DNA of 64,000 bases from Candidatus Shapirobacteria bacterium UBA2283 (GTDB lineage Bacteria; Patescibacteriota; Microgenomatia; UBA12405), in assembly GCA_002345725.1 (NCBI GenBank), contig DDWP01000020.1, positions 1,433 through 65,432 of the forward strand, written 5' to 3'. The notes beneath the pieces were generated by a model. That model was not told the origin of the DNA and made no database searches. It saw nothing but the letters and a program-made list of their open reading frames with translations. The translations under genes were made by a program, and so were the position numbers. Shown here piece by piece: positions 14,774 to 52,708 of the stretch (positions are counted from its first letter, which is position 1; every line of letters begins with the position of its first letter).

Positions 14774-14794
14774 ATTAGTGCTTATAGAAAGGAG

Positions 14795-16218: not shown

Positions 16219-16224
16219 TGGAGG

Positions 16225-16262
16225 AAGGTCAAGGCCAGCCCGTCAAAAGGCTGGCCTGACCC
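16225..16262 (+). terminator. GC-rich hairpin downstream of 15595..16218 (putative terminator)
   Basis: GGTCAAGGCCAGCC-loop-GGCTGGCCTGACC immediately after the stop codon; weak T-tract. Confidence 0.35.
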
Positions 16263-16301
16263 AGCAGAGAAAGAATATTTAAACTAAAATAAAAAAGCAA
16301 T

Positions 16302-16844: not shown

Positions 16845-16869
16845 TGGCAAAATTTAGTAGAATACGCTT

Positions 16870-17992: not shown

Positions 17993-17995
17993 ACT

Positions 17996-18277: not shown

Positions 18278-18284
18278 AATTGTT

Positions 18285-19046: not shown

Positions 19047-19060
19047 AATTAATCAATCAA

Positions 19061-23244: not shown

Positions 23245-23260
23245 AGTTTATTAATTCCAA

Positions 23261-26200: not shown

Positions 26201-26308
26201 TGCCTCACTTTGATAGTTTGTCGCGCGAACACTTTCCGGTGTGTACTCGGAAACAACAGTGCTCTGCGTATTCTTAGCGACTAGATTGTATTTGTTATTA
26301 ATTGGCAT
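23261..26308 (-). CDS. hsdR: type I restriction enzyme R subunit
   Basis: SF2 helicase motifs HTTGSGKTLTSF, LIFDECHRSQ; 1015 aa; adjacent to hsdS and hsdM. Confidence 0.85.
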   Translation of the reverse strand: MPINNKYNLVAKNTQSTVVSEYTPESVRATNYQSEAELERAFIKQLELQAYEYVTISSEANLIANLRKQLEKLNAFTFSDLEWERFFVSELANPNQSITEKTATIQEDHIKNLTRDDGTVKNIYLIKKDSIHDNSLQVINQYATEDGQRANRYDVTVLVNGLPLVHIELKRRGVAIQEAFNQINRYNRESFWASSGLFEYVQIFIISNGTHTKYYSNTTRYQHVKDSNEGSVKNGKRTSNSYEFTSWWADATNRPITDLMDFAKTFFAKHTILNILTRYCVFTTDKLLLVMRPYQIVATERILNRIEVSTNYKKLGTAEAGGYIWHTTGSGKTLTSFKTAQLASKLSYIDKVIFIVDRKDLDYQTMREYDKFEKGAANSNTSTAILTRQLENSNARIIITTIQKLDRFISRNTGHTIFDDHVVLIFDECHRSQFGDMHAAITKTFKNYHIFGFTGTPIFAINASSGGRPDLKTTEQAFGEKLHTYTIVDAIADKNVLPFKVDYISTVREAENIEDKKVSDIDREAILAASERLENIVRYIREHFDQKTKRNSFYKLKDRRLAGFNSIFAVSSIDVAKKYYAEFKKQLSDLPSDKQLKVATIYSFGVNDEDADGMIDENSEDTSGLDVSSRDFLESAIVDYNKMFGTSYDTSSDKFQNYYKDVSERVKNREIDILIVVNMFLTGFDATTLNTLWVDKNLRLHGLLQAYSRTNRILNSVKTFGNIVCFRNLEKATNESIALFGDKEASGIVLLKAYADYYHGYNDGSKEIRGYESLVKELQERFPVGERIIGEQNQKDFIKLYGAILRVRNILTTFDEFVGNEILSERDVQDYHSAYIDIYNEFRKGTEDSKENVNDDVVFEMELIKQVDINIDYILGLIKKYHEDHTKNREILLDINKAIDSSVELRNKKDLINQFIESLDVHSIVDDDWRKFIEGKKVEELEQIITSEGLDHDATYTFIKNAFRNGNVATTGTAITKILPPVSRFSPTGERTKKRESVLDKLTRFFERFFNISGE

Positions 26309-27482
26309 ATTCTTTGAAACTTAACAATTTATTTCGATAGTATTCATATTGAGATCTTCTAGCGGCAAGCTCAGCAGGTAAACCTATTGAGATGTCGTTC
26401 ACTAATTTTTCAAACTTATCAAGAATAATAACGATATTTTCCTGTTGGGTTATGGTAGGAATAGGAAGTAATAACGATTTAACTATCTCAGCATTTAAAT
26501 TTTGTACAGTTCCATTCGATGCTTTTTGCGTCATTGTTTGATAGACGGCGTCTGAGCTTAAAAGGTGGTATAAAAAATCTGATATATATGTTTTGTTGAA
26601 ATCACTTATGGATAACCAACCGTCATGTATGCACCCATCGATTTTTAAAATATATGGTCGACCAAAACTCATTGAGTTTGATAATACAAAATCACCTTTT
26701 TTAACAAATCTCGATTTCTGAGCACCTTCTGGTTTAATTTTTTGCAAAGTTTGCGTTATATATTTACTTCCCTTTTCAACATCACCAATTTTTATCCAGT
26801 TGATACCGTTTTCTTCCTTAGTAAAATAATTATTAATTGGCCGTGGAGAACCACCCCTGACAATCTTTGCACTTTCTCCAAACTTCGCCCACTTTATGTC
26901 TTTGCCAAACTCCAAGAACTTTGAACGATAGTGATTGTATTGCTTCTTCCTTGCTTCCAGCTCCGCTTCCAGCTCCGCTTCCAGCTCTGTGAAATTATTA
27001 AGAATTTTGACTATTTCATTTTGTATTGCAAGCGGTGGCAATGGGATTTTAAATTTGGAATACTGGGAAATCCAATGACGAGCATGGTCTGTTGGAGTGT
27101 AGTTAATACACTTCATTGCGTAATACAAAAATCTAAAATTCACACCAGCGTTTTGTTTCGGTCTTAACATTTTCATTGCTGAAGACTTAACTTTAAATTT
27201 AAAATCAACCCAATGAAATGAAGTAGTAAAATCATCAAAGATAATTACAGGCTTATCTTTACTTGCTTCGTATATTCCTTCTGTTTCGTCTGTGTAGCCG
27301 AGGACAAAGCTTTGTCCTGCAGTCAAAACTGGAGTTGCGAAATCATTGCTATATTCTATTGAATTAACTATGTAATCCCCAGGTTGCTCATAGTCCAAGA
27401 GATCATCCAATTCTTTGAAATCAACCCCTTTGGGGCACAACTGTGTAATTAATTTTTCTATTTTGCCTTGTTTGTTAGTCAT
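26298..27482 (-). CDS. hsdS: type I restriction-modification specificity subunit
   Basis: Two TRDs separated by a central conserved coiled-coil (ELEA)x3-RKKQYNHYRSKF, and C-terminal AELAARRSQYEYYRNKLLSF. Confidence 0.8.
   Translation of the reverse strand: MTNKQGKIEKLITQLCPKGVDFKELDDLLDYEQPGDYIVNSIEYSNDFATPVLTAGQSFVLGYTDETEGIYEASKDKPVIIFDDFTTSFHWVDFKFKVKSSAMKMLRPKQNAGVNFRFLYYAMKCINYTPTDHARHWISQYSKFKIPLPPLAIQNEIVKILNNFTELEAELEAELEARKKQYNHYRSKFLEFGKDIKWAKFGESAKIVRGGSPRPINNYFTKEENGINWIKIGDVEKGSKYITQTLQKIKPEGAQKSRFVKKGDFVLSNSMSFGRPYILKIDGCIHDGWLSISDFNKTYISDFLYHLLSSDAVYQTMTQKASNGTVQNLNAEIVKSLLLPIPTITQQENIVIILDKFEKLVNDISIGLPAELAARRSQYEYYRNKLLSFKEYAN
26953..26988. repeat. 12-bp tandem repeat x3 (GCTTCCAGCTCC) encoding (ELEA)3 in the hsdS central conserved region
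   Basis: Three consecutive copies at 26953-26964, 26965-26976 and 26977-26988 (last with 1 mismatch). Confidence 0.8.
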
Positions 27483-27486
27483 ACTT

Positions 27487-29070
27487 TTATGTTGAACCTT
27501 CGATATCGTTTACAATCTCGTCGATGGCTGTTCGGAGTTCGTTTTGTCTCGCCACAATCTGGGTTATCTTTGCATTAAGCTTAGTTATATCCACTGCCTC
27601 ACGAGTATCTTCTGCTACCACATAACTTGACACCGCAACGTTGTAATCGTTATCAGCAATGGTTTTGTTGTCTATAAGTTTGGCAAAATACTCAGAGTCT
27701 TGACGGTCACAAAATGCATTCAAAATTTTTAGACGATTGGCCTCGCTAAGTTTGTTTTTATTTCCACCCCTCACAAACTCTGCAGAAGCATCAATAAAGA
27801 GAGTCTTATTGTCCTTTTTGCTCTTTTTGAGAACAATGATGCATGTTGCTATACCTGTTCCAAAAAAAAGATCTGGGGGTAGCTGAATAACAGTGTCTAC
27901 GTAGTTGTTATCGATAAGGTATTTACGAATCTTTTGTTCTGCACCGTTACGATAGAGAACTCCTGGAAATTCAACAATCGCTGCCGTGCCGCTTGTTGAG
28001 AGCCATGAAAGCATGTGCATGGTAAAAGCAAGATCGGCTTTGCTTTTCGGGGCCAAAACACCCGCTGGAGAGTAGCGTGGATCGTTTATAAGAAGTGGAT
28101 TAGCGTCACCATCCCATTTTATTGAATAGGGTGGATTAGAAACTATCGCATCAAAGGGTTCTTCGTCCCAATGTTTTGGATCAGTGAGAGTATCGCCAAG
28201 GGCAATGTCAAAGTTGTTGTAGTTAATGTCGTGCAAAAACATATTGATACGGCAGAGGTTGTAGGTAGTTAGGTTGATTTCTTGTCCAAAAAAACCTTGA
28301 CGCACATTTTCTCTTCCAAGAACCTTGGCAAATTTGAGAAGAAGCGACCCAGAACCACAAGCCGGATCATATACTTTATTAACTTCTTTCTTGCCTACTG
28401 TAGTAATCTCAGCAAGCAGCTCACTAACTTCTTGTGGAGTATAAAATTCACCACCAGATTTGCCTGCATTCGAGGCATACATGGTCATCAGAAACTCATA
28501 TGCATCCCCGAAAGCATCAATGGTGTTGTCGGAATAATTTCCAAGGCCAAGATTACCAATTGCCTCCAAAAGTTTAACGAGTTTCTGATTCCTTTTTTCT
28601 ACAGTATTGCCTAATTTGTTGGAATTCACGTCAAGATCGTCAAACAGTCCCTTAAGATCATCCTCGCTGCTTGCGCCTTTTGCTGAGTTTTCTATCTTAT
28701 TAAAAACAGTTGATAAAGTCTCGTTGAGATTTGCATCATTGCGTGCATTTTTACAAACATTTGTAAAAAGCTCGCTCGGCAAAATATAGAACCCTTTTTC
28801 CTTAACAGTATCTGTCCGACCAAATTCTGCCTCTTTATCCGATAGATTTGCGTAATCAAAACCTTTTTTGTCTGCACGACGTTCATCATCGTTAATGTAG
28901 TTAGCTAAATTCTCGCTGATAAAACGATAAAAAAGCATTCCCAGTACATACGATTTAAAATCCCAGCCATCAACGCTTCCTCTTAAATCATTAGCAATTT
29001 GCCAAATAGCACGATGCAACTCTGTACGTTCTTGTTCTTTGGTTCTATCTTGAGAATCTGTTTTTTTCAT
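27487..29070 (-). CDS. hsdM: type I restriction-modification N6-adenine methyltransferase subunit
   Basis: HsdM N-domain (IWQIANDLRG...YVLGMLFYRFIS), motif I DPACGSGSLL, motif IV SNPPYS. Confidence 0.85.
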   Translation of the reverse strand: MKKTDSQDRTKEQERTELHRAIWQIANDLRGSVDGWDFKSYVLGMLFYRFISENLANYINDDERRADKKGFDYANLSDKEAEFGRTDTVKEKGFYILPSELFTNVCKNARNDANLNETLSTVFNKIENSAKGASSEDDLKGLFDDLDVNSNKLGNTVEKRNQKLVKLLEAIGNLGLGNYSDNTIDAFGDAYEFLMTMYASNAGKSGGEFYTPQEVSELLAEITTVGKKEVNKVYDPACGSGSLLLKFAKVLGRENVRQGFFGQEINLTTYNLCRINMFLHDINYNNFDIALGDTLTDPKHWDEEPFDAIVSNPPYSIKWDGDANPLLINDPRYSPAGVLAPKSKADLAFTMHMLSWLSTSGTAAIVEFPGVLYRNGAEQKIRKYLIDNNYVDTVIQLPPDLFFGTGIATCIIVLKKSKKDNKTLFIDASAEFVRGGNKNKLSEANRLKILNAFCDRQDSEYFAKLIDNKTIADNDYNVAVSSYVVAEDTREAVDITKLNAKITQIVARQNELRTAIDEIVNDIEGST

Positions 29071-29072
29071 AA

Positions 29073-29249
29073 TTATTTTCCATTTTTATGACTAATAAAT
29101 TTTTCGATATCTTCCTTTTTGTATCTGCGAACCTTTTTAATCCCAATTCGTATGGCTTTTAGTACACCTTTCTTGTCCCATAATCTAAGAGTGTTAGGGT
29201 GTACTTTTAGTATCTGAGCTGCTTCACTTAGTGTTAATAGTTCTTCCAT
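29073..29249 (-). CDS. small HTH_17 (excisionase/AlpA/MerR-like) DNA-binding protein, 58 aa
   Basis: Minus-strand translation MEELLTLSEAAQILKVHPNTLRLWDKKGVLKAIRIGIKKVRRYKKEDIEKFISHKNGK; stop is 2 bp before the hsdM start; below the track length cutoff. Confidence 0.55.
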   Translation of the reverse strand: MEELLTLSEAAQILKVHPNTLRLWDKKGVLKAIRIGIKKVRRYKKEDIEKFISHKNGK

Positions 29250-29370
29250 ATGATTTACCTACCAATTTATACTAATAGCATACAAAAAAAACTGATATTT
29301 TTCAACAGTTGTCACCAGAAACGAGCTAGCATTTGACACTTTAATTTTATAACCTGAGATTGTAACTAAT

Positions 29371-29440
29371 TTGCCTAACGAACCTGTCGGGGCTTAGGTT
29401 TGTCTATTTCAACCGAGTAGATGAACCTAAGCCCCTTTTT
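29371..29440 (+). promoter_or_regulatory. conserved box TTGCCTAACGAACCTGTCGGGG plus 12-bp-stem hairpin and T5 (copy A), 11 bp before the portal ATG
   Basis: Stem GGGGCTTAGGTT (29389-29400) pairs with AACCTAAGCCCC (29424-29435), then TTTTT; box is repeated at 34448. Confidence 0.55.
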
Positions 29441-29451
29441 GTTATCCACAT

Positions 29452-31296
29452 ATGTCAGAGATCAAAGAAGAAAAAATAACTCAGGATAGACACTACGAGC
29501 CCACGCCAGAAGAAGAAAAGCTTCTAACTAAGTGGAAAGCGAGATTCCGACGTGCTAAAGAATTTCGTGACCCGTATCAAGCGAAATGGCTCAGGATGTA
29601 TCAGCTCTATCGTGCCTATCAGAATAAGCAAAATTACGCTTACAACACGCGCTTAATGCCCCCCATTGCCTTTGAGATAGTGAAGACTGTAGTTTCCCGA
29701 CTGGCTACTGCCAAACGGAAAACACAAATCATTCCGCGCCACAGAGATGACGTTGAATCTCCGTCGCTGGGATCTTGGGATGACCTGGTTAACTATGACT
29801 TTGACATTATTGACCTGATCAAGAAGCTTCCAAGTTGGATCGAATCATCGGTCCTGTACGGTAACGGTGTGGTTAAGCTTGCTTGGAAAGTAATTACCAG
29901 GAAGAAGAAAACTGTATACGACGACCCAACCATGGGTCTGATTGACCTTTGGGAATTGCTCCCGGCGCCGGAAACTATTGATGACCTTCAGGACGGTTGC
30001 CCGTGGCTCATTCAACGCATTGTTAAAGGAAAAGAGAAAATAGAAAAGGAAGAAGAAAGCAGGGGTGATGATAAGATTTATAAGAATTTGGAGTTTTGTG
30101 AGCCAAAAATAGTTGAAGACTGGAAAAAGGAAAGATACGAGATTAACAGTAAGAAGATGTCTCAGGTAGATGGTGGAACTAAAAAGGAAGCTGATGGGGA
30201 AAAGGTTCTTCCGGCAAAACTCGATAAGGAAAAACAACTTGAACTCTGGGAGTGTTGGGATTATGAGGAAGATAAGCTGGTAGTGATCTGCAATGGTGAG
30301 GTGGTAATAAGAGATGACGATAATCCCTATCTTGAAGTCAACAATGGTCATATCTATGTTGATTTACCAGATATGCCCCTGCTATGGGAATTCTGGGCGA
30401 CCGGTCATATCGAACCCGTAGAAACGACAATCCATGAAATTGCGGATCTGAGAAATCAGCGTATGGATGATGTCATCCTGATGTTGGACCCGGTAGTCAA
30501 AATTCGTAAGGATTCTGGAATTACCAAAAACGATATTATCTTTTCTCCAGGTGCGACTTGGGAGTTGAGAAAGATGGATGATGTGGTTATCGAACGGCCA
30601 CCAGAAATAAGCCTCATGGGTGTTAATGAAGATAAATTAATGAGGGATGAAATTTCTCGCACTCTTGCCCTTGGCGAATATATGAGTGGCCAACCACAAT
30701 CTCCCGATGAACCCCTTGGAAAAGTGGCAACACTTATTGGCCAAAGTAATCTACGGCTTAGCATGAATGCTCAAAATATCGCTGTTGCCTTGACCCAGGT
30801 GGCCAACATTCTCATTCAACTTAATCAAGAGTTTATAAGCGAGGACAAGCTATATCGATTAATAGGTAAGGATGTAGATTTCAAAGAATTCAAGAAGGAA
30901 GATAAAAAAGTAGTAGTTGATGCGATTGTTGAAATTGAGCCGATAATCCCCCCAGATAAAACTACAAAACTAAATCAGGTCCTACTCATGTATGACAAGT
31001 TCATTGCTCAGGACAAGCCGGATCCAAATAATCCCGAGGAGGTAAGGCGATGGTTGAAACGTAAGCGAGAATTGCAAAAGATGATTTTGGAAGAGTTAGA
31101 TAAAGAAGAATACATAGAGCTTTTGTTGGGTCCCGATTCAGAAGCCAAGGAGCTACCACAAAATAATGATGCACAAGCCCCCATAACACCCGCTGAGGGG
31201 CAAACTCCACCAGCAGAGCCAACTACACCCGGTCCAAACAAAATTCAACAACTTATGGGTAAGATACCAATTTTAGGGAAGATGTTGGGAGGTTAA
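29452..31296 (+). CDS. putative phage portal protein
   Basis: 614 aa, first gene of the structural string, acidic C-terminus; assignment by size and position. Confidence 0.4.
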   Translation: MSEIKEEKITQDRHYEPTPEEEKLLTKWKARFRRAKEFRDPYQAKWLRMYQLYRAYQNKQNYAYNTRLMPPIAFEIVKTVVSRLATAKRKTQIIPRHRDDVESPSLGSWDDLVNYDFDIIDLIKKLPSWIESSVLYGNGVVKLAWKVITRKKKTVYDDPTMGLIDLWELLPAPETIDDLQDGCPWLIQRIVKGKEKIEKEEESRGDDKIYKNLEFCEPKIVEDWKKERYEINSKKMSQVDGGTKKEADGEKVLPAKLDKEKQLELWECWDYEEDKLVVICNGEVVIRDDDNPYLEVNNGHIYVDLPDMPLLWEFWATGHIEPVETTIHEIADLRNQRMDDVILMLDPVVKIRKDSGITKNDIIFSPGATWELRKMDDVVIERPPEISLMGVNEDKLMRDEISRTLALGEYMSGQPQSPDEPLGKVATLIGQSNLRLSMNAQNIAVALTQVANILIQLNQEFISEDKLYRLIGKDVDFKEFKKEDKKVVVDAIVEIEPIIPPDKTTKLNQVLLMYDKFIAQDKPDPNNPEEVRRWLKRKRELQKMILEELDKEEYIELLLGPDSEAKELPQNNDAQAPITPAEGQTPPAEPTTPGPNKIQQLMGKIPILGKMLGG

Positions 31297-31904
31297 TTTG
31301 CTCCCTTGAGGAAAAGAATTATTGGACGTGAGAAAACTGTTAATGCTGCCCCAATACTAAGCATGTGTTCAGGAGTCGGCACTTTTGTATTTAATGCCCC
31401 TTGTAAAATGGTTGTCTCAGAAGGGACGAGCTCGTCCCCAAACATTGGGCGGACAGTCATTACCTTTTTCAAATCTACCTCTGATAATGAATTAAGTCTT
31501 CTCTCGCAAAGTCTCACCGAATCGGCAAAAGCCATGCTCGAACGTGTCTTTGATGCGAAAGAACGGAACCCGGAAATGGGGCCAACTCTTAATCGTCCAC
31601 ATATATTGATGACTTTATTTATAGAACCCTTACGTTCAATAAAAGCATTAAGTACGGCACTTCCACCAGCACTTGTTCCAACTAAAGAAACTGAGTCTCC
31701 ATTTTCCGTAAACCCATCAATCATCTCAATAAGTCTATGTAGTTTTGGTTCAAATGAATTTTCTCCATCACGCCACCCAACGGAATAAACTACTGGTTTC
31801 AGGCCGTAGTTCTTCCAGCTTCTTATTGCCCATTCAAGTTTTTTAGTATCATCACCTAGACCTGGAATAACAATGACTTTATGTTCTTTTGGCATAGATG
31901 ACAA
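31293..31904 (-). CDS. alpha/beta-hydrolase fold protein
   Basis: GxSxG nucleophile elbow VSLVGTSAGGSAVL; convergent with the portal gene. Confidence 0.55.
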   Translation of the reverse strand: MSSMPKEHKVIVIPGLGDDTKKLEWAIRSWKNYGLKPVVYSVGWRDGENSFEPKLHRLIEMIDGFTENGDSVSLVGTSAGGSAVLNAFIERKGSINKVINICGRLRVGPISGFRSFASKTRSSMAFADSVRLCERRLNSLSEVDLKKVMTVRPMFGDELVPSETTILQGALNTKVPTPEHMLSIGAALTVFSRPIILFLKGAN

Positions 31905-31939
31905 AAATTAGTTTACTGGCTTATATATCTAAATTATTT

Positions 31940-32866
31940 TTATCCGCTAATTTGTTTAGCATATTCTTCATCAAATACATTACTGACCTGGTCAATTCGG
32001 AATCCCTGCCCTGTTTTATCCCAATCAATTGGTAACGTTTTGTATCCAGGTGGGATAAAGTCGTTTAACTTTTGGATATCACTTGGATCCAATTTGTGTC
32101 CAATTGCTGCCAGGTGTTCGTCGATATGTGCTTTATTTTCAGACTTGGTAAGAGGTAATAAGCCTTTAGATATAATCCAACTGAGGACCACTTGGTTTTG
32201 AGTTATTCCGTACTTTTTGGAAAGCTCGACTAAAATTGGCCAATTCCTGTTTGCGGTTCGGTTCCTTCTTAAAGGCTGATAAATGGCAGTCACGATTCCA
32301 TTATTCTGGGCGTACTCAATGGTTCCTTCCGCCTCATTAGCACGAACTTCAAAGTTGAAACACACTTCATGGGAGAATAATTTGTCGCCAAATCTTTGAT
32401 GATATTTTTTGAGTAGTTCTAAGTTTTCATTGGTAATACTTGTATATCTGGATTTACCGGCAGTTACAACCTTATCGGCCATACTGCAAACCTCATCAAA
32501 TTCATAATCTAGGAAAGCACTTTGAGTGTACTGAAGGGTATCAATATAGTCAGTATCGAATATTTTTAATAATCTATCGATTTCTGCTTCGGTATCTTGG
32601 AGTTTGTTATCCTTCAGATAAACTGCCTGAACAATAAATATCTCCTCACGGTTTTTACCTGACTTTCTGAAAGCTTCGGCAAGAATCTCAGCAGAGTAAC
32701 CCTGAGAATACCAAAGATTGGCTTCGACATAATTCATGCCTTTTTGAAACATGTAGGCAATAGCGTCAACTTGTTTATTCTTATCTAGGGTCTGATCTTT
32801 TTCTGCAAATCCACCAACACCCCAGGTTCCTATACCAATTGGAAATAAATCATTTTTGGTTATCAT
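31940..32866 (-). CDS. aldo/keto reductase family oxidoreductase
   Basis: N-terminal GIGTWGVGG, YVEANLWYSQGYSAE (AKR active-site region), 308 aa. Confidence 0.65.
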   Translation of the reverse strand: MITKNDLFPIGIGTWGVGGFAEKDQTLDKNKQVDAIAYMFQKGMNYVEANLWYSQGYSAEILAEAFRKSGKNREEIFIVQAVYLKDNKLQDTEAEIDRLLKIFDTDYIDTLQYTQSAFLDYEFDEVCSMADKVVTAGKSRYTSITNENLELLKKYHQRFGDKLFSHEVCFNFEVRANEAEGTIEYAQNNGIVTAIYQPLRRNRTANRNWPILVELSKKYGITQNQVVLSWIISKGLLPLTKSENKAHIDEHLAAIGHKLDPSDIQKLNDFIPPGYKTLPIDWDKTGQGFRIDQVSNVFDEEYAKQISG

Positions 32867-32871
32867 AATTT

Positions 32872-33840
32872 CTATACCACCACGTTTTGTGGAGCTCCAT
32901 TTATAAATGCCTTAACATTGGCAATAGCTAAAGTGTACGACTTAGTATTGGCGTCTTCGGTGTTGAAGGCATTGTGTGGAGTAACCACAATACGGTGATG
33001 TTTCAAATAAGGACTATCCGTAGGAACTGGCTTCATAATTTCAGTCTCAATTCCAAAACCAAAGATTTTGCCACTCTCAAGTCCCTTCAGAACAGCCTCT
33101 TTATTTGTAATTGGCTCCATTGCAGGATTAATCAAGATGACACCATCTTTCATGAGAGTTACTTCTTTTTCAGAGATCATATCTGTGGTTTCTTCTGTTA
33201 GTGGAACTGTGGTGACAATAACGTCGCTTTCTTTGAGAAGTGTTTCCAAATCGACTTGCTTGATGCCTTCGATTGTCTTTTGGCTACGGTTATAACCAAG
33301 AATTCGCATGTCAAAGCCAGAGGCAATTCGTGCCACTTTGGTTCCAATATCACCTAGACCAATGATTCCGATCGTTTTTCCATATACCTCTTTACCCACA
33401 TAGTCAGCAAACTTAAATGCTCCTTTATTTCGAACGTCGCGATCGAACTCAGTAATCCGCTTTGCAATGTCTAGGATTAAACCCCAAGCATGCTCTGCAA
33501 CTGATTCAGCATTAGCACCCTTGATGTTGCAAATCGTAATGCCTAGTTCTTTAGCTGCTTCAATGTCTACCCAAGCAACACCGACTGTTAGAGTGGCTAT
33601 CATTTTCAAGTGCTTCATTCCAGACAACAACTCTCTTGATATTTTTTCAATACCAGAGGAACCGGCAATCAAAATCTCTGCATCTCCTGCCCTGGATATA
33701 ACCTCATCTGCGGTCATTTTTTGAGCGTTTATGACAATCAATTCACCTAAACTCTTTAACTCACCCTCCATTGCCCCAGAAATTATTGGATTAGATGTGA
33801 TTAAGTAAATTTTCATATTAAACGCCTCGTCTTTGATCAA
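32872..33840 (-). CDS. D-isomer-specific 2-hydroxyacid dehydrogenase (glyoxylate/hydroxypyruvate reductase-like)
   Basis: NAD-binding GKTIGIIGLGDIGTKVARI, catalytic region VVTPHNAFNTED. Confidence 0.8.
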   Translation of the reverse strand: MIKDEAFNMKIYLITSNPIISGAMEGELKSLGELIVINAQKMTADEVISRAGDAEILIAGSSGIEKISRELLSGMKHLKMIATLTVGVAWVDIEAAKELGITICNIKGANAESVAEHAWGLILDIAKRITEFDRDVRNKGAFKFADYVGKEVYGKTIGIIGLGDIGTKVARIASGFDMRILGYNRSQKTIEGIKQVDLETLLKESDVIVTTVPLTEETTDMISEKEVTLMKDGVILINPAMEPITNKEAVLKGLESGKIFGFGIETEIMKPVPTDSPYLKHHRIVVTPHNAFNTEDANTKSYTLAIANVKAFINGAPQNVVV

Positions 33841-34288
33841 CTAGACCACCCATATAATTAGCTTTGTATATCAACTTTTCACCTTGGGTAATTTGTTCTT
33901 CTCCTGAATATCTTTCAACGTCTCCTGTCCAAGAATTGCGATATGTAAGTTCACCAACAACTAGCTCTTTTGGTCCACGGAAAGGAGCCTCTTCTGGCAT
34001 AGCTTTTAAAGCACCTCTCAAAGTGGCGTAGACTGGATCAGTCTCCACACCTTCGGCTACCCACCCGTAGTAAACCATCATCCAAATTGGTTTATCTTCA
34101 TTAAAGACGACGACTCTACCACCATAAGGTTCACCACCAAAGAAGTTATCATGAGATCGCCATTTGCCTTGAGTATAAGGAATTGTGGTAGATCCATCTG
34201 GCTCTTTTATCCACTTTTTCTCTTCACCACCAGCGTAACCGGCTTTATTTGAATCGATTAAAAACTGTCTTAAAGTTTCTTTATTCAT
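33818..34288 (-). CDS. hypothetical protein (156 aa), first gene of the reverse-strand cassette
   Basis: Overlaps the dehydrogenase start by 23 bp; no diagnostic motif. Confidence 0.45.
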   Translation of the reverse strand: MNKETLRQFLIDSNKAGYAGGEEKKWIKEPDGSTTIPYTQGKWRSHDNFFGGEPYGGRVVVFNEDKPIWMMVYYGWVAEGVETDPVYATLRGALKAMPEEAPFRGPKELVVGELTYRNSWTGDVERYSGEEQITQGEKLIYKANYMGGLVDQRRGV

Positions 34289-34447
34289 AGGTGCTCCTGA
34301 TTACAATTGTACATTTCTTTAATTTCTTACATTGTAGCAAAACTCCCACCTCTTTACCAACCATTTTCTCGGTATAAACACCAGAAACGGACAGAAAGAT
34401 TATTGAAGATATCCGCCATCTTTGTTTACTATTAAACCATTAGGAAG

Positions 34448-34526
34448 TTAGCCTAACGAAACTATCGGGGCTGTGGCTTCTGAATATACGCAAATAGCGT
34501 GTGTTTAGAAGTTACAGCCCCTTTTT
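34448..34526 (+). promoter_or_regulatory. conserved box TTAGCCTAACGAAACTATCGGGG plus interrupted hairpin and T5 (copy B), 12 bp before the 34539 ATG
   Basis: GGGGCTGTGGCTTCT...AGAAGTTACAGCCCC then TTTTT; box shares ~19/22 nt with copy A. Confidence 0.55.
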
Positions 34527-34538
34527 ATTTACAAAGCT

Positions 34539-34859
34539 ATGCAAAAAACTGAACCCGAATTAAATAATAAAAATCAGAGCGTGCCATCCCTCGATGCAAA
34601 TAACGACCAGAATTCGACCACTCAAGATCAAGACCAAAAGCAAATTGTCTGGGGAAAAGTCGATGTGGTGTACAACGTGGCTAAAGAAGCGTTTCTTCAG
34701 GGAACTTCATCCATTGACGATGTGTTGTCCAGTCTAATTGCCACATTACAGGAGATAAAGAATGACGAGATTCAAAACTTAGGGGGTTTGGGAACAGTTC
34801 CAGCAAACGGTAATTTATTAGGTAATGAGTTAGATCAACAACCACCAGAACAACCATGA
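34539..34859 (+). CDS. hypothetical phage protein
   Basis: 106 aa, first gene after regulatory copy B. Confidence 0.45.
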   Translation: MQKTEPELNNKNQSVPSLDANNDQNSTTQDQDQKQIVWGKVDVVYNVAKEAFLQGTSSIDDVLSSLIATLQEIKNDEIQNLGGLGTVPANGNLLGNELDQQPPEQP

Positions 34860-35110
34860 CAAACACACCAGAGGAAAATTTTGAACCAGGACGAGAAATA
34901 TGGGAAATGACCCAGACAGCAGGTTGGCAAATTCTTTGTCAGCAAATAGCGCAAGAAATTGAGCTAGAGACCAATGAATTGCTTGATTGTCCACTGTCTG
35001 AGGATGTTGAACACAAACAAATGATTAAAGCATATAAAAAAGTTCTAAGCATTGTTGAAAGTTCTTTGAATAAACGTAACGAAAATACTCAGGTTAATAC
35101 AAAAATTTAA
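34856..35110 (+). CDS. hypothetical phage protein
   Basis: 84 aa, ATGA-coupled to the previous gene. Confidence 0.45.
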   Translation: MTNTPEENFEPGREIWEMTQTAGWQILCQQIAQEIELETNELLDCPLSEDVEHKQMIKAYKKVLSIVESSLNKRNENTQVNTKI

Positions 35111-35119
35111 AGGAAAAAT

Positions 35120-35911
35120 ATGGACGAAAATAAACTAAAAGAACAAGAAGAGCTTAAAAACCTACTTAATTCAGACGATACTGCTGATACTCCAGATGGG
35201 GGTGGTGATGAGGATAAAAACAAACCGGACGATTCAAACAATGATAACGAGGATGATAAGAACGATCCCGATAAGAAAACTTTGAAAGATGATCCTGATA
35301 AGGATGCTACGAGCACTGACAACAAAAAGGAAAATAAACCCGCTGATCGGTGGAGTGGTAAAAGTCGAGAGGAAGTAATTAAAGAATTTGAGACTCTCGA
35401 GACTAAAACGACTATTCCAAATAATGACAAAAAAGATGATGACCTGAAACTTCCCCCTCAGGAAGAACTTCAAAAAATGACCCCAACTGATTTTGCTAAG
35501 TGGGTATTAACCAGAATAAATGAAGGTGTCAAACAGACTCTTGAAACTCAAGAAAAAGTACGAGGTGCTGTCCGTCGGGAAATCGATGAAGCAAAAAAGA
35601 ATCATCCATTGGACGATCCTGACTATAGAAAAATGGTATTAGCCATTATTGATGCGGCGAGTGCAAAAGGGTCAAACGTACCTTTGAAAGAAGCGTGTGA
35701 ACAGGTGGATGCATTTTTGGGAAAACATACTGGGCAATCTGAAGATATATCAGATGACGAGCGTAGCCGACTTAAAAAGGCTAAGGCTCAAGTCGAGAGT
35801 GGAGCGGGCGCTCCGACTCAACCCGAGAACTCGGATGCTGAAACTCAACGCATCCAGAAAGCTCTTGGACATGGTGGGTCAAAAGGCTCCTTAGGAGGGT
35901 TGGGATTATGA
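35120..35911 (+). CDS. putative scaffolding protein (acidic, coiled-coil)
   Basis: Highly acidic D/E/K-rich N-terminal half; sits immediately upstream of the putative major capsid gene. Confidence 0.45.
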   Translation: MDENKLKEQEELKNLLNSDDTADTPDGGGDEDKNKPDDSNNDNEDDKNDPDKKTLKDDPDKDATSTDNKKENKPADRWSGKSREEVIKEFETLETKTTIPNNDKKDDDLKLPPQEELQKMTPTDFAKWVLTRINEGVKQTLETQEKVRGAVRREIDEAKKNHPLDDPDYRKMVLAIIDAASAKGSNVPLKEACEQVDAFLGKHTGQSEDISDDERSRLKKAKAQVESGAGAPTQPENSDAETQRIQKALGHGGSKGSLGGLGL

Positions 35912-35960
35912 CCTTCCTGTCTAATTATCATTTTATAAGGAAAGGGGGTGAATAAAAATT

Positions 35961-37127
35961 ATGCCATCAACAACAGGAATTAGAGGAACAGGAAATCAAG
36001 GAGTTACCAGAAAGTATGATGTCGCTGACGTTGTTTCGCTTTTGGATGTTAATAGATATCCATTGTTGGCGATTTTAACTAATGCTGGGAAAGATCCCGT
36101 TACTGGTGAGGGTAAGGCGATGAAGAAAAAAGAGTCGATGGACCCAGAATTTAAATGGTTTGAAGATGAATTCGGACGAAGACAGCTTACGGGAACGTCA
36201 ACAATTGACCCTGACGGTGGAAATCTAACGCTTACGAGCCAAGCTCAATACCTCCAGGTTGGAGATATAGTATTGGTCGCGAAGCAAAAGTGGGTTTTCC
36301 AAGTTAGTGCAATTGTCGATGCAAACACTATTTCGGTGGGACCGGAACTTGGAGGTGCGACTGGCGCCGCGGCTGATGCTTCAGGAGATGTTTGGCTTAT
36401 TGGTAACGCCAATGAAGAAGGATCTGGATTGAGAGAAATTAGATCTACAGTCATTCAAGAAATAGCTAACTACTGTCAAATTTTCAGAACTCCAGTTGGT
36501 ATCACTGAATCAGCAAAGAATACTAAGGGATGGACCAAAGAAAGCGATTTTGACTACCAGAGACGGAAAAAAGGAATTGAACACATGGTCGATATTGAAC
36601 GTTCATTTCTCTTCGGTAAAAAAGGAATTATTACTACTGGCTCACATCCAAAACGGTTTACTGGCGGTATCTTAGCTAGAATTGCAACATACGCTTCGGC
36701 GAGTGTTGATACTGAATCTGAATTCGAAGCATGGTTGGAAAGTCTATTTGCTTTTGGAAACACCGAGAAGTATCTTTTTGCGTCCGCATCTGTGGTCTCA
36801 ATGATCAACAGCTGGGCAAAAGGGAAAGTCCAGATAGTTAATCCGACAAAAACATATGGTCTTCGTATCGTAACTTATGATTCTCCGCACGGAACTTTGC
36901 ATATTATCAAGCACCCACTCTTAGCGGGTGTGACTTATGGTAACTATGCGGTCGGATTGGATATGGAAGCGTTGACTTACCGTTACTTAAGTAATCGTGA
37001 TACGAAACTATTAACTAACAGACAGGACCCTGGCGAAGATAGTCAGGTAGATGAGTATTTAACTGAATGTGGTCTGCAAATGGAGCAAGAAAAACGCCAT
37101 GCCATCATGAGCATCGGTGCTCTCTAA
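35961..37127 (+). CDS. putative major capsid protein
   Basis: 388 aa with SD AAGGGGGTGAA; position after the scaffold-like gene; assignment by size and synteny. Confidence 0.45.
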   Translation: MPSTTGIRGTGNQGVTRKYDVADVVSLLDVNRYPLLAILTNAGKDPVTGEGKAMKKKESMDPEFKWFEDEFGRRQLTGTSTIDPDGGNLTLTSQAQYLQVGDIVLVAKQKWVFQVSAIVDANTISVGPELGGATGAAADASGDVWLIGNANEEGSGLREIRSTVIQEIANYCQIFRTPVGITESAKNTKGWTKESDFDYQRRKKGIEHMVDIERSFLFGKKGIITTGSHPKRFTGGILARIATYASASVDTESEFEAWLESLFAFGNTEKYLFASASVVSMINSWAKGKVQIVNPTKTYGLRIVTYDSPHGTLHIIKHPLLAGVTYGNYAVGLDMEALTYRYLSNRDTKLLTNRQDPGEDSQVDEYLTECGLQMEQEKRHAIMSIGAL

Positions 37128-37222
37128 AAATACAGAAACGATATGAAACAGATTAGTAAATTGAAAAAAATGAAGTCACTGCACACTTTGTTACTCAGTG
37201 CAGTCGTTTAAGCCAAGGGTGA

Positions 37223-37855
37223 ATGTTATCACCCTTGCAAACTTTATTAAAGATAGGAGGTGAAAAACAAATGACAGAAATAAACGATAAAACATTAGAA
37301 GAAATGTCCATGGCAGAGCTATGGGGTGAAGCAAAACGCTTAGGAATATCGAAAGAAGGGAAAAAGGAAGACCTGATTGCTCGTATTAGAGAGGCGAAAG
37401 TAGGTGGCGCATCATCAGACAGTAACGATGATCAAGATCAGGAAAGAAAGGTAAGCAAGGAGGTTATCTATATCTCGAGATATCACGAACTTAAATTGGT
37501 CGTTGATCCATCTTACTTGAAAGAGGTTGGTGTCCGAGTGTTGACAATTAAGGGCAAGTGCATTCAGTTCCATGAGGGAATTTACAGAACCTCAGATCCT
37601 GAAGAAATTGCTTTTCTTAATAACCATCCTAATTATGGCAATGTTTTCCGCAAAATCGAACAGGTTGAAATTAAAGGAAAAAATCTTGAGCAAGTTTATA
37701 AGGATAAATTTAAAACGCTTGAAGAAAGAGAGCGGGACATTGCTATTAGAGAAGAATCCATAAAACGCAAAGAGATGGTGTCAAAAGGTCACCAAGAAGG
37801 TGCGTCTTCAGTTACTAGTGGAATTGAAGACACAACCAATCAGCCTAAATTTTAA
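37223..37855 (+). CDS. phage protein with Rho-N/SAP-like motif
   Basis: LEEMSMAELWGEAKRLGISKEGKKEDLIARIREA resembles a Rho_N/SAP motif; likely start MTEINDK (37271) after SD AGGAGGTGAAAAAC. Confidence 0.4.
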   Translation: MLSPLQTLLKIGGEKQMTEINDKTLEEMSMAELWGEAKRLGISKEGKKEDLIARIREAKVGGASSDSNDDQDQERKVSKEVIYISRYHELKLVVDPSYLKEVGVRVLTIKGKCIQFHEGIYRTSDPEEIAFLNNHPNYGNVFRKIEQVEIKGKNLEQVYKDKFKTLEERERDIAIREESIKRKEMVSKGHQEGASSVTSGIEDTTNQPKF

Positions 37856-37868
37856 AAGCTAAAAAAAT

Positions 37869-38159
37869 ATGGAAAGCAGACCTAAATTTACAACGGCCAA
37901 TGTCACATTGACCAACGCCGACACTTGGTATCCCCTGCCAGATATTGCGGTCGGCGAAGGATGTGACGTGGTGATTAAGTCGAAGACTGGGAATACTGGT
38001 GCAATAAAGGTCGCCCATGATGATGCTACCAGCAAAGCATCGCCGTTTTTACTGGATAATCCTGGAGACAGTGTGAGCTTGAGAATTAAGGGAACGACTC
38101 AAATCGTTCTCTCTTCCAGTGTCGTTGGACAAGTTGTGGAGGTTGTTGCTGAACAATAA
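37869..38159 (+). CDS. hypothetical phage structural protein
   Basis: 96 aa ORF within the structural string. Confidence 0.4.
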   Translation: MESRPKFTTANVTLTNADTWYPLPDIAVGEGCDVVIKSKTGNTGAIKVAHDDATSKASPFLLDNPGDSVSLRIKGTTQIVLSSSVVGQVVEVVAEQ

Positions 38160-38161
38160 AT

Positions 38162-38749
38162 ATGGCCAAATTTAAACCATCATTAGTAAATATTCGAAGA
38201 ATGTTCTCGAAGATGAGAATCATCGTCAATACTGATGATGGCGAAGAAGATTACGACACAACCTTCTATCCCAACGGTTTTACCGCTAACCAAATTTCAA
38301 TCGGTAACGACAACACTGGCAGTAATGATGCTGGATTGAGATTCTTAAGACCACTACTGCCTAACAACGTCAAAATAACTAAAGCCATTCTGCGAGTCAA
38401 GTCGGCCGTTAATTCCACTAAGCGCCCCATCTGGGTAATTAAGGGGATTAAGCAAGCCAGTACCTTGAGCTTTGATTCCACTCACCGACCATCACAGCAA
38501 CCTAAAACGACTACCACAGTTGCCTGGGTCCCTGGAGCGGATTGGGTAATTAATAACTGGTATGAAAGTCCAGATATCAAAACGATTATCCAAGAAATCA
38601 TTGACCAAACAGAATTTACCAATAAAGCGATTGGCTTGGTGATTGAAGACAATGCCAGTCCAGCCAATAACTACGAGAACATCTGGGACTTTAACAGTGG
38701 AGCGGCTAACGCTGCTCAGCTTGTATTAACACTTGAACCAGATTTGTAA
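38162..38749 (+). CDS. single-copy paralog of the ~170-aa repeat domain found in 39000..40685
   Basis: DDGEEDYDTTFYPNGFTANQISIGNDNTGSNDAGLRF...PSQQPKTTTTVAW...YESPDIKTIIQEIIDQ parallels both repeats of the next large gene. Confidence 0.55.
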   Translation: MAKFKPSLVNIRRMFSKMRIIVNTDDGEEDYDTTFYPNGFTANQISIGNDNTGSNDAGLRFLRPLLPNNVKITKAILRVKSAVNSTKRPIWVIKGIKQASTLSFDSTHRPSQQPKTTTTVAWVPGADWVINNWYESPDIKTIIQEIIDQTEFTNKAIGLVIEDNASPANNYENIWDFNSGAANAAQLVLTLEPDL

Positions 38750-38764
38750 GGAGGTGAAAAAAAT

Positions 38765-39079
38765 ATGCAAACAAATGATGCTGCGCTATTACAAACGATT
38801 TTAGAAGCCATAGTTGTCAGTCCCGACAAAGTGGCAGTTGAGCGAACAGTCGACGAGATGGGAGTTTTACTTAAAGTCAAAGTCGATGAAAAAGATGCTG
38901 GAGCAGTGATTGGAAAAGAAGGTGCCACTATTGCTGCGATCCGAAAATTGATGGGCGTTTTCGGAAGAAAAAATAACGCTCGAATAAACATCAAGTTAGA
39001 TGTTCCGCCCAGAAAGAAATTACAAAAGTATGAAAAACCAAGTATTGAAGATCAAAACCACGATACAGGAAAACTCTGA
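38765..39079 (+). CDS. KH-domain protein (KhpA/UPF0109-like)
   Basis: GAVIGKEGATIAAIRKLMG (GxxG KH motif); SD AGGAGGTGAAAAAAAT; 3' end overlaps the next ORF. Confidence 0.5.
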   Translation: MQTNDAALLQTILEAIVVSPDKVAVERTVDEMGVLLKVKVDEKDAGAVIGKEGATIAAIRKLMGVFGRKNNARINIKLDVPPRKKLQKYEKPSIEDQNHDTGKL

Positions 39080-40685: not shown

Positions 40686-40689
40686 AAAT

Positions 40690-42800: not shown

Positions 42801-42802
42801 CT

Positions 42803-45168: not shown

Positions 45169-45172
45169 ATTT

Positions 45173-52682: not shown

Positions 52683-52708
52683 ACATTGTATTGAAATATT
52701 AATAATTT

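Follow-up and report, generated by a model that had tools for sequence, protein, structure and literature searches.

Candidate transcription attenuators before the late genes of a predicted temperate phage

Two copies of a leader element, each made up of a conserved box, a long hairpin and a run of T residues, lie directly upstream of late genes on the plus strand of the window (the whole stretch of 64,000 nucleotides analysed). We would give a probability of about 0.6 to the reading, drawn from sequence comparison and predicted folds, that each copy is a promoter-proximal transcription attenuator by which a temperate phage gates one of its late (head-morphogenesis) operons. As an apparent on/off switch of late genes, the element falls outside the catalogued RNA families; no Rfam family, mini-ykkC included, matched it at E values up to 10.

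The box, CCTAACGAA-N-CT-N-TCGGGG, occurs twice in the window (from 29374 and from 34452; chance expectation 0.05). Matches to CCTAACGAANCTNTCGGGG in the 64,000 nt, with up to 3 mismatches tolerated, are limited to 29374-29392 and 34452-34470, both on the plus strand; shuffled sequences gave a mean of 0.05 matches, and two or more matches were found in 0 of 100 shuffles. Both sites were recovered by a covariance model made from relatives (plus strand, 82 and 81 bits; minus strand, 25 and 19 bits), which found no third copy in the window. In copies A and B alike the box is followed by the long hairpin and TTTTT; the T-run ends at 29440 (A) and 34526 (B), 11 and 12 nt before the ATGs at 29452 and 34539. 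Genes 5' of the copies (29073-29249; 33818-34288) are on the minus strand and read away from the elements, so the hairpins are not 3' terminators of these genes. An earlier reading made without database searches (the sequence-only reading) had described the two copies of box, hairpin and T5, their distances to the start codons and the opposite strand of the upstream genes, and had set them apart from ordinary 3' terminators; all of this holds here.

The comparison covered about 70 distinct related leaders; their sources were viral contigs, metagenomes and genome bins, the bins mostly labelled Patescibacteria. Box, hairpin and T-run were present together in 10 of 10 viral-contig matches and in 13 of 20 genome matches; the remaining 7, which had no hairpin, were chance matches. 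By these searches the element is confined to two sites in the window and to relatives of the phage. In the relatives the box is invariably directly 5' of a late gene and never free-standing; most box-bearing leaders stand before a portal-type start (MPKPEVKE...), those of the B type before the starts of other late genes, and A-type and B-type hairpins form separate sequence groups. Distance from box to hairpin ranges from 7 to 29 nt across families.

Within the window the copy-A unit consists of a single gene, a putative portal gene (29452-31296, plus strand; 614 aa). Its assignment comes from weak profile matches (SU10_portal, E = 1.4e-4, below the Pfam cut-off; phrog_1216) and is backed by nearby genes for an SU10-type major capsid protein (35961-37127, plus strand; E = 4.9e-44) and an adaptor (40690-41334, plus strand); relatives of the portal gene are preceded by the same leader. 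Capsid and adaptor genes belong to the rightward late block under copy B (34539-51154, plus strand; first ORF 106 aa), together with an unassigned 263-aa ORF (35120-35911, plus strand; a scaffold role would be a guess from position only), an amidase-domain protein, a 1541-aa protein and a C39-like peptidase. The element belongs to a prophage that carries a serine recombinase and a repressor/IrrE-type pair and has host genes on its flanks; the closest relatives of this prophage are in Patescibacteria (CPR) genome bins.

Motif matching places a sigma-70-type promoter upstream of the box. Matches of at least 9/12 were found in 35 of 70 distinct leaders, compared with about 3% of control windows, and many are near consensus (e.g., TTGACA-17/18-TAAAAT or TACAAT); the distance from the end of the -10 to the hairpin is 18-23 nt (mode 19), so the box would be transcribed and would not be the promoter itself. 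The predicted copy-B promoter (34403-34432, plus strand; score 8/12) has -35 TTGAAG (34403-08), an 18-nt spacer and -10 TACTAT (34427-32), which ends 18 nt before the hairpin, with a start at about 34439; its counterpart in relatives is TTGACA-18-TACAAT. For copy A (plus strand), -10 TAACCT (29350-29355) with a weak -35 and a start at about 29362 is predicted; it aligns in position with TAGCCT, TAGCAT and TAGAAT of relatives, hexamers that leave 17-20 nt to the box hairpin. In the close family the -35 hexamers of copy-A promoters are poor, and some of the regulation may therefore be exerted at the promoter. Between U-run and ATG there is no room for a promoter. An 11-nt exact repeat, CACCAGAAACG, is located 5' of the copy-A promoter (29313-29323) and of the copy-B promoter (34379-34389) on the plus strand, with no other exact match in the window; it may serve as a site for an activator or as a UP-like site.

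The predicted intrinsic terminator of copy A (29389-29440, plus strand) has a 21-bp stem, G-U pairs included (29389-29409/29415-29435), loop 29410-29414 and U-run 29436-29440; that of copy B (34467-34526, plus strand) has a 25-bp stem (34467-34491/34497-34521), loop 34492-34496 and U-run 34522-34526. The stems of 12 and 13 bp given in the sequence-only reading were therefore understated. Minimum free energies are -34.9 kcal/mol for copy A (86 nt; z = -6.4) and -47.3 kcal/mol for copy B (91 nt; z = -8.6). In the RNAalifold consensus, both-side changes occur at 10 of 19 terminator pairs; stem cells hold 95 G-U against 14 A-C combinations, with many compensatory changes, and covariation at the terminator base scores 0.378 (0.187 in shuffles). 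This bias in the alignment marks the long hairpin as selected as plus-strand RNA. Its 5' arm carries a conserved (C/U)UUCU(G/C)U stretch, and stems across the leaders measure 21-35 bp, far beyond the length needed for termination. Termination at copies A and B would presumably be efficient.

For the box itself the predicted fold is a small hairpin with a bulge (GCCU / AA bulge / CGA-loop-UCG / GGGC), the proposed antiterminator, whose 3' strand is the bottom of the terminator 5' arm. In copy A (29373-29393, plus strand) it consists of GCCU 29373-76, AA bulge 29377-78, CGA 29379-81, loop 29382-86, UCG 29387-89 and GGGC 29390-93; in copy B (34451-34471, plus strand) of GCCU 34451-54, AA 34455-56, CGA 34457-59, loop 34460-64, UCG 34465-67 and GGGC 34468-71. 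Folded by itself, the 5' domain adopts this hairpin as its minimum-free-energy structure in both copies (A, -6.1 kcal/mol; B, -7.7 kcal/mol) and in every family tested. The loop of the small hairpin corresponds to the N positions of the box; in its place distant relatives have an additional hairpin that covaries. Helix cells are paired without exception (300 of 300), and two pairs show both-side changes (0.2 such pairs in shuffles), figures to be read with the motif anchoring of pseudo-alignment A3, which favours the small-hairpin structure. G-C is changed to A-U in L009B, L041 and L044, and C-G to U-A in L112, with L049 as the U-G intermediate; in this highly conserved box the support amounts to about 4-5 independent consistent substitutions. 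More distant leaders (L138, L139, L051) have small hairpins built differently, with YACG loops, the overlap in L139 not being at the terminator base; L147, a distant relative, has GUCU/GGAC. Bases of the shared strand covary also with the terminator 3' arm (three-way covariation), and small hairpin and terminator share bases in 50 of 50 leaders. By this pattern the two helices are mutually exclusive, with covariation on both sides. The terminator conformer is predicted at -33.4 (A) and -47.4 (B) kcal/mol, and the fold with the antiterminator enforced at -23.2 (A) and -34.6 (B) kcal/mol.

As an attenuator, each copy would work as follows. RNA would start from the sigma-70-type promoter about 12 nt 5' of the box; the box would fold into 4 bp (GCCU/GGGC) and a purine-A bulge, topped by an apical part that varies and is closed by CG/CG. 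UCGGGGC, the 3' strand of this small hairpin, would double as the lowest segment of the 5' arm in the long G+C-based hairpin, with the U-run directly after the latter. By default the long hairpin would zip to its base and transcription would end 11-12 nt before the start codon, giving an RNA of about 80-90 nt and silencing the portal and head genes in the lysogen; with strong host-type promoters before structural genes, a block would be needed there. In lytic growth a trans-acting factor, most likely a phage-encoded RNA-binding protein, may hold the small hairpin; the five bases GCCCC would then be left unpaired between residual stem and U-run, the terminator would fail and RNA polymerase would enter the late genes. 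Read-through would thus be regulated, probably by a protein and not by a metabolite or a kinetic effect. Among the products encoded in the window, no Q, N, CAT/PRD, ANTAR, NusG-like or other recognisable antiterminator protein was found.

Processive antitermination (lambda N/nut, Q/qut, HK022 put), with the box hairpin as loading site and its terminator overlap incidental, seems to us unlikely, even though promoter, conserved leader element and terminator before late genes are the lambda PR'-tR' paradigm, and two sites per genome, one 3' of each promoter, are reminiscent of nutL/nutR and putL/putR. A small bulged hairpin would also suit binding of an arginine-rich peptide; such hairpins are typical targets of these peptides (N-boxB). 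A remote loading site needs, however, neither the sharing of bases in all 50 leaders nor bases that covary with both partners; no conserved -10-like pause element was found between predicted start and box, no put-like two-stem structure in the folds, no further strong terminators within the late block and no Q or N homologue in the window, N-like proteins being hard to detect. The antitermination or attenuator control proposed in the sequence-only reading is supported by promoter, RNA terminator and exclusive box hairpin. The anatomy agrees more closely with an antiterminator/terminator attenuator than with processive control of the qut or put kind, and searches for Q, N and put features were negative. 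Less probable again is the absence of any switch, i.e., a constitutive, partly leaky terminator, RNase III site, mRNA 5' stabiliser or small RNA gene with its own function, with late genes expressed by basal read-through. Stems of 21-35 bp are of RNase III substrate size and much above terminator needs, the promoter-to-terminator unit would give a discrete RNA of about 80-90 nt, and the equivalent 6S RNA of lambda is not known to have a function; yet the conserved terminator-competing small hairpin and its covariation would be left unexplained, the box always adjoins a late gene, and constitutive portal and capsid expression from near-consensus promoters is unlikely in a lysogen.

A small-molecule riboswitch, with the box hairpin (larger in distant relatives) as aptamer and the terminator as expression platform, is improbable. 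A sensor overlapping a terminator is the architecture of transcriptional riboswitches, the domain of distant relatives reaches about 55 nt with its extra hairpin and a conserved CUAA(A/G)nG, and the universal core, ACGR, is reminiscent of the ACGR loops in guanidine-II riboswitches; but the close-family domain is only 21 nt, its ACGA is outside any tetraloop, the Rfam search was negative, and a metabolite signal is not obvious for virion structural genes. Very improbable is a late promoter for the ECF-type sigma factor of the phage (12055-12579; regions 2 and 4; Pfam Sigma70_r2, r4_2 and ECF; phrog_1740; conserved in at least 2 related contigs), with the box as -35 (..AAC), a -10 17 nt downstream in the 5' arm and starts inside the hairpin escaping termination. 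Although xxAAC/GAC-N17-CGAC/GGCT/GGTT is readable in several leaders and the (C/U)UUCU(G/C)U stretch is conserved, a fixed-spacing promoter cannot tolerate box-hairpin spacings of 7 to 29 nt; in insert families the supposed -35 coincides with the 3' arm of an RNA hairpin that shows covariation, and this -35 does not always read ..AC (CAGGC in L125, CGGGC in L131), covariation of the box 5' edge with the hairpin base is meaningless for a promoter, and a host-type promoter lies at a fixed distance upstream. An origin of the two copies as target-site duplication or as terminal repeats from insertion of the reverse-strand cassette (31293-34288), the alternative offered in the sequence-only reading, is contradicted and hardly credible: the copies do bracket portal gene and cassette, but cassette-free relatives carry both copies (in L038, L106 and L109 copy B follows the portal stop by about 60 nt), the cassette site is taken up in L004 by another cassette, the A and B hairpins differ and group separately, the repeat includes structured RNA with strand-specific G-U pairs, and the portal, a core gene, sits between the copies.

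The attenuator reading shares features with several known systems. As in transcriptional riboswitches and T-box leaders, sensor and terminator helices are exclusive and the shared strand shows three-way covariation; unlike in these, the close-family sensor is tiny (21 nt), matches no Rfam model and precedes virion genes. Lambda N/nut (boxA plus boxB) and HK022 putL/putR also have two copies per genome just 3' of two promoters, and a conserved linear-plus-hairpin RNA that affects the transcribing polymerase in cis; nut and put sites, though, lie clear of terminators and work processively over kilobases, and neither boxB (5-bp stem and pentaloop) nor put (two stem-loops, about 70 nt) was found here. 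Lambda PR'/tR' (6S RNA)/Q is matched in the host-type promoter directly before late structural genes, in the intrinsic terminator shortly downstream giving a short default RNA, in the need of all late expression for read-through, and in the temperate (here predicted) phage; it differs in that Q binds promoter DNA, engages a paused complex that depends on sigma and has a processive effect, whereas here an RNA hairpin shares terminator bases, with neither a Q homologue nor a conserved pause-inducing -10-like element found, and in having one unit per genome against two in the present phage. BglG/SacY/LicT-RAT, ANTAR (AmiR/NasR/EutV) and HutP systems govern bacterial catabolic operons and not phage late genes; RAT (about 29 nt, two internal loops) differs in sequence and shape, ANTAR targets are two hairpins with hexaloops, and the window encodes no CAT/PRD, ANTAR or HutP domain. 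In these systems, as proposed here, a short imperfect leader hairpin overlaps the terminator 5' arm and, when held, presumably by a protein, keeps the terminator from completing.

The 19-nt box pattern CCTAACGAANCTNTCGGGG was found at two places only in the 64-kb window with up to three mismatches allowed, 29374-29392 and 34452-34470, both on the plus strand; 0.05 matches are expected by chance, as judged from shuffles of the window. Each box is followed by a long hairpin and TTTTT: in copy A (29371-29440) a 21-bp stem pairs 29389-29409 with 29415-29435, and in copy B (34448-34526) a 25-bp stem pairs 34467-34491 with 34497-34521. The minimum free energies are -34.9 kcal/mol for an 86-nt stretch at copy A and -47.3 kcal/mol for a 91-nt stretch at copy B, with z-scores against shuffled controls of -6.4 and -8.6, respectively. 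The sequence-only reading had given stems of 12 and 13 bp, which is too short, as only the perfect Watson-Crick part had been counted. Its spacing is confirmed, the T-runs ending 11 nt upstream of the ATG at 29452 (putative portal gene, 29452-31296) and 12 nt upstream of the ATG at 34539 (late block), as is its observation that the genes to the left of the copies (29073-29249 and 33818-34288) lie on the minus strand and point away. The long hairpins are therefore not terminators of those genes, and the portal gene and the 34539 block must be transcribed through, or from within, the intergenic regions of 200-250 nt. The absence of a Shine-Dalgarno sequence before the portal gene was dismissed as a clue, since some genes of the window have one and others do not.

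The RNAalifold consensus of 29 elements contains changes on both sides at 10 of 19 pairs of the long hairpin, whose cells hold 95 G-U against 14 A-C combinations; G-U pairs of the plus strand are mismatches on the opposite strand. A covariance model scores the plus strand ~57-62 bits above the minus strand. By these comparisons the long hairpin is a plus-strand RNA structure. A G+C-rich stem base with an immediate U-run is the textbook signature of an intrinsic terminator, and the element has a GGGGC/GCCCC base, then directly five U, and plus-strand-specific selection; termination itself is predicted. The 5' arm of the long hairpin also carries a conserved (C/U)UUCU(G/C)U stretch.

Promoters of the sigma-70 type are predicted immediately upstream (L-numbers denote related leaders or contigs from viral contigs, metagenomes and genome bins; A-type and B-type are the counterparts of copies A and B). 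When 70 distinct leaders were all scanned alike, 35 reached a consensus score of at least 9 of 12, against ~3% of control windows. TTGACA-18-TACAAT lies upstream of the B-type copies of L038, L106 and L109; TTGACA followed after 16-18 nt by TAAAAT (L041, L044, L112, L120) and TTGCCA-17-TATAAT (L119, L122) lie just upstream of the box. In the window, the predicted promoter is TTGAAG-18-TACTAT for copy B (34403-34432, plus strand), and copy A has a predicted -10 hexamer TAACCT (29350-29355, plus strand), with a weak -35 as in other A copies of the close family; close-family A promoters share a conserved ACATTAACGAACTAG near -35, which is absent from B promoters. The gap between the end of the -10 hexamer and the start of the box hairpin is 18-23 nt (mode 19), and from the position of the hexamer the predicted RNAs begin ~12 nt before this hairpin; if terminated, they would be ~79 nt (copy A) and ~88 nt (copy B) long. 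By this layout the box is predicted to be transcribed and is not itself a promoter. Among leaders with 45-50% portal identity, L138, L141, L142, L139, L145, L051 and L150 have consensus TTGACA...TAAAAT promoters.

Upstream of both leader promoters, the exact 11-mer CACCAGAAACG occurs at 29313-29323 and 34379-34389 (plus strand) and nowhere else within the window. Relative to the predicted leader starts its two copies are centred ~44 and ~55 nt upstream, a difference of one helical turn, and it could be a protein-binding site or the product of gene conversion between the two promoter regions. An operator common to the immunity region and the leaders was ruled out, CACCAGAAACG being absent from the immunity region.

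Folded alone, the 5' domain forms the same small hairpin in every family: GCCU/GGGC, a two-base purine-A bulge, and CG/CG closing a variable apical part. The apical part is a 5-nt loop holding both N positions of the box in the close family, a GC-triloop-GC stem in L044, L049 and L112, and a covarying extra hairpin with CUAA(A/G)nG in the largest distant family. The strand UCGGGGC (29387-29393, 34465-34471) is at once the 3' strand of the box hairpin and the bottom of the 5' arm of the terminator; it can pair with GCCU..CGA or with the terminator 3' arm, and covaries with both. In A3, a pseudo-alignment of equivalent positions from 50 distinct leaders that is motif-anchored and so favours the structure, each of the 300 cells of the six core pairs holds a standard pair, the figure for registers shifted by 1-3 columns being at most 66%. 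Two core pairs change on both sides (G-C to A-U in L009B, L041 and L044; C-G to U-A in L112, with the U-G intermediate in L049), against 0.2 such pairs in shuffles, and L147 (45% portal identity) has GUCU/GGAC independently. Support for the box hairpin is real but modest: within a highly conserved motif there are ~4-5 independent substitutions, all of them consistent with the pairing. Enforcing it costs 10-13 kcal/mol relative to the full terminator and deprives GCCCC, which lies between the remaining stem and the U-run, of its pairing partners; an unpaired GCCCC ahead of the U-run should abolish termination, from what is established of intrinsic terminators.

The bulged hairpin is replaced in the most distant leader classes by small hairpins whose loops are YACG (UNCG-type), for example GGGUU-CACG-AACCC, GCU-UACG-AGC (twice) and CCU-UACG-AGG, and which adjoin or overlap the long terminator; a three-way covariation is again seen between L138 and L142.

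The best-supported reading is a promoter-proximal attenuator in which antiterminator and terminator would be mutually exclusive. Termination would be the default, so that virion genes stay off in the lysogen despite host-type promoters, and holding of the small hairpin would permit read-through into the late genes. The holder would be a phage-encoded RNA-binding protein, since a conserved bulged helix with a variable apex resembles a protein site and the regulated genes are late. Pfam and PHROGs searches of the scanned ORFs detected no Q, N, CAT/PRD, ANTAR or NusG-like protein; the early and middle ORFs matched only an HTH_3 Cro-like protein, DUF2292, the sigma factor, methylases and both terminase subunits, small and large. 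The stretch 5578-17442 also encodes proteins of 302, 267, 207, 180 and 190 aa without assignment. The gene next to the leader on its upstream side was considered as the source of the antiterminator. It varies by lineage (a 190-aa protein without assignment, a protein of >435 aa or, in distant relatives, a 62-68-aa zinc-ribbon ORF), and none of the three could be tied to the element. The zinc-ribbon ORF lies between the large terminase gene and the leader in L139, L141 and L145.

The sequence-only reading had proposed antitermination (qut/put-like) or attenuation at the 5' ends of late units. Its attenuator logic was essentially right, given the upstream promoter, the plus-strand terminator and the competing hairpin; no Q, N or put features were found. 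Structure prediction and covariation, which it had suggested as a check, bear it out: both hairpins fold, covary and share UCGGGGC. Processive antitermination is the rival nearest to its qut/put part; the box hairpin would then be a loading site, and the strand shared with the terminator is the feature that points instead to direct competition. A long hairpin acting as a non-regulatory terminator, a processing site or a small RNA gene would agree with stems of 21-35 bp, far exceeding what termination needs; the covariation of UCGGGGC with two alternative partners argues for a switch. The alternative offered by the sequence-only reading, that the copies are a target-site duplication or ends left by insertion of the reverse-strand cassette between them, is contradicted by L038, L106 and L109, where copy B, together with a promoter of its own, starts ~60 nt past the stop codon of the portal gene and no cassette is present; the two copies are thus separate leaders of adjacent operons and not cassette scars.

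A metabolite riboswitch would share the expression platform. Rfam searches at E up to 10 with copies A and B and L045, L139, L051, L138, L141, L142 and L147 returned chance miRNA and snoRNA matches only, and at gathering thresholds the whole window returned tRNAs only. The guanidine-II riboswitch (mini-ykkC, RF01068) has two hairpins with ACGR tetraloops; it was rejected, as the conserved ACGR of the close family spans bulge and stem and forms no tetraloop, and the model gave no match. A nested promoter for the phage ECF-type sigma factor (gene 12055-12579) was considered seriously. Promoters of this type have a -35 (..AAC) and a CGT-like -10 at a fixed spacing of 16-17 bp; the proposal fails because the distance between box and arm ranges from 7 to 29 nt and because one arm of a covarying RNA helix makes up the alternative -35.

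The box with long hairpin and T-run was present in all 10 viral-contig matches to the box and in 13 of 20 genome matches; the other seven were rejected as chance matches, in high-G+C genomes and without the hairpin. Most true matches precede a portal-type start (MPKPEVKE...), and the B-type copies of L009, L011 and L017 stand before the starts of other late genes. In the window, the covariance model, trained on 29 close-family elements, recovers both copies (82 and 81 bits) and no further site. The search for further copies in the genome and related phages that had been suggested agrees with a late-gene element: none more in the window, and the true copies of relatives before late genes. A box-independent search with the portal and capsid proteins gave ~70 distinct portal-upstream regions; the capsid gene was used as query because the 106-aa ORF that follows copy B gave no relatives. 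Such a leader was present in nearly all relatives with at least 45% portal identity and was not found in the four most distant ones (L144, L151, L154, L157); in distant families there is one leader only, ahead of the portal gene. True copies lie in 13 public genome records, eight of them Patescibacteria-labelled metagenome-assembled genomes (Daviesbacteria, Woesebacteria, Gottesmanbacteria, Roizmanbacteria, Nomurabacteria) and five labelled Gammaproteobacteria or Pseudomonadales, possibly from mis-binning. Megablast of 28500-36000 against a phage collection gave no near-identical DNA, and protein searches gave distant capsid relatives only (at most 30% identity) and one weak portal match. In L133 (~1400-1490), the terminator 3' arm and T-run alone remain before the portal gene, box and 5' arm being replaced by unrelated sequence; if not an assembly artefact, this deletion would be a constitutively read-through allele. 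Taken together, the comparisons indicate that the element is real and is probably an attenuator variant.

The window contains a ~52-kb prophage in a bacterial chromosome. At its left end a serine recombinase (1792-3408) adjoins three tRNA genes (1556-1856), likely the attachment region; an ORF at 387-1898 (TGT domain) overlaps these tRNAs, so that its true start must be further downstream. A DUF3800 protein (3918-4547, minus strand), which also matches the PADLOC candidate defence family PDC-M04A, lies between the recombinase and a repressor module consisting of an IrrE-type peptidase and an HTH repressor (4538-5441). The rightward block encodes a replication initiator, methylases, small and large terminase subunits, the ECF-type sigma factor and a YceG-like protein; the sigma factor (12055-12579, plus strand; Sigma70_r2, r4_2; phrog_1740) is encoded downstream of the large terminase subunit, two related viral contigs have it at 61% identity, and the gene after it encodes a 302-aa protein without matches. 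The head/tail block after copy B includes an SU10-type major capsid protein and adaptor, and six tRNA genes (52468-53159, plus strand) lie near the right prophage end. Apparent host chromosome (54598-63818) encodes a solute-binding protein, a transglutaminase-like protein, LexA (58297-58986), a TP_methylase-family methyltransferase, pyruvate phosphate dikinase and the ATPase of an ABC transporter, with a further tRNA region at 62909-62982; a holin-like gene (56152-56613) lies among these genes. The closest genome-bin relative, L021 (Woesebacteria), is 90-94% identical to parts of the window; L080, L081 and L021 derive from groundwater, sediment and digester samples. In L021 (4056-7168) only ~3 kb separate leader A from the immunity region (window 4560-5392), a distance that is 24 kb in the window, so the prophage architecture is mosaic or rearranged between close relatives.

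Both leaders are bordered by cargo. A leftward defence island (17453-29249, minus strand) encodes a Cas4-like PD-(D/E)XK nuclease (18285-19046), Gabija GajB (19061-21001) and GajA (20983-23244), type I restriction-modification (HsdR, 23261-26308; HsdS, 26298-27482; HsdM, 27487-29070), a 58-aa HTH_17/MerR-like protein (29073-29249) and two small ORFs without assignment. In L081 the homologue of window gene 16870-17442 abuts leader A, from which window 17453-29362, defence island included, is an insertion before the leader-A promoter. The minus-strand cassette (31293-34288) encodes a 203-aa protein without assignment, an aldo/keto reductase, a D-2-hydroxyacid dehydrogenase and a DUF5680 protein; at the corresponding site, between its portal gene and copy B, L004 (5917-10176) carries an opposite-strand cassette of different content, one product of which is an 841-aa protein. 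By these comparisons, the stretches just upstream of both leader promoters are cargo uptake sites of this lineage.

Beyond the attenuator reading, we tentatively propose, at roughly one chance in three, a new class of late-gene switch in prophages and viral contigs linked to Patescibacteria (CPR), in which a short conserved bulged RNA hairpin, held by a phage factor of a new family of RNA-binding antiterminators, would compete directly with the terminator stem. To our knowledge, the characterised phage late antiterminators all reprogramme RNA polymerase processively, this would be the first cis-regulatory RNA described for phages of Patescibacteria, and essentially no work has been published on gene regulation in these phages; a full-text literature search found no description of the element. 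If right, the attenuator model would provide a specific cis element, and a mechanism open to testing, for the transition from lysogeny to late-gene expression. CPR phages appear to use sigma-70-type promoters and intrinsic terminators, as in well-studied bacteria. The signature of box and long hairpin marks late-operon starts and flags prophages in CPR genome bins; the element points to an antiterminator that could be sought by co-variation or pull-down; and the cargo sites at the leaders (Gabija and type I restriction-modification; redox-enzyme cassette) inform where prophages carry defence genes.

Among known systems, HK022 put is an RNA of ~65-70 nt with two stem-loops, protein-independent and without terminator overlap, whereas the 5' domain here is a single bulged hairpin (21 nt in the close family) that overlaps the terminator. 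Lambda N/nut has a boxA consensus, a boxB with a 5-bp stem and GNRA-like pentaloop, and N protein; no boxA-like sequence was found here, the bulge of the hairpin is 2 nt and its 5-nt loop is variable, and Pfam and PHROGs gave no N homologue, N-like proteins being hard to detect. ANTAR leaders carry a tandem pair of hairpins, whose hexanucleotide loops have A at position 1 and G at position 4, and work with an ANTAR protein; in the close family the element has one hairpin only, its loop being 5 nt long, and no ANTAR domain was found in the scanned ORFs. Lambda Q/qut is nearer, as both have a promoter directly upstream of late genes, then a promoter-proximal intrinsic terminator. It also has a -10-like pause element in the initially transcribed region and a Q-binding DNA element in the promoter; across relatives no conserved TAnnnT was found between predicted start and box, and no Q protein (Q-lambda, Q21 and Q82 families) was matched by Pfam or PHROGs in the scanned ORFs, which cover most of the window, although a divergent Q could escape. 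As in BglG/LicT-RAT, the 3' part of the antiterminator hairpin overlaps the 5' arm of the terminator; no scanned ORF matched a CAT_RBD or PRD domain, and the box does not appear similar to the RAT consensus. The element is placed outside these families because their defining features were looked for and not found; its layout works like that of lambda PR'-tR', and its structural logic like that of BglG/LicT-RAT or of a riboswitch expression platform.
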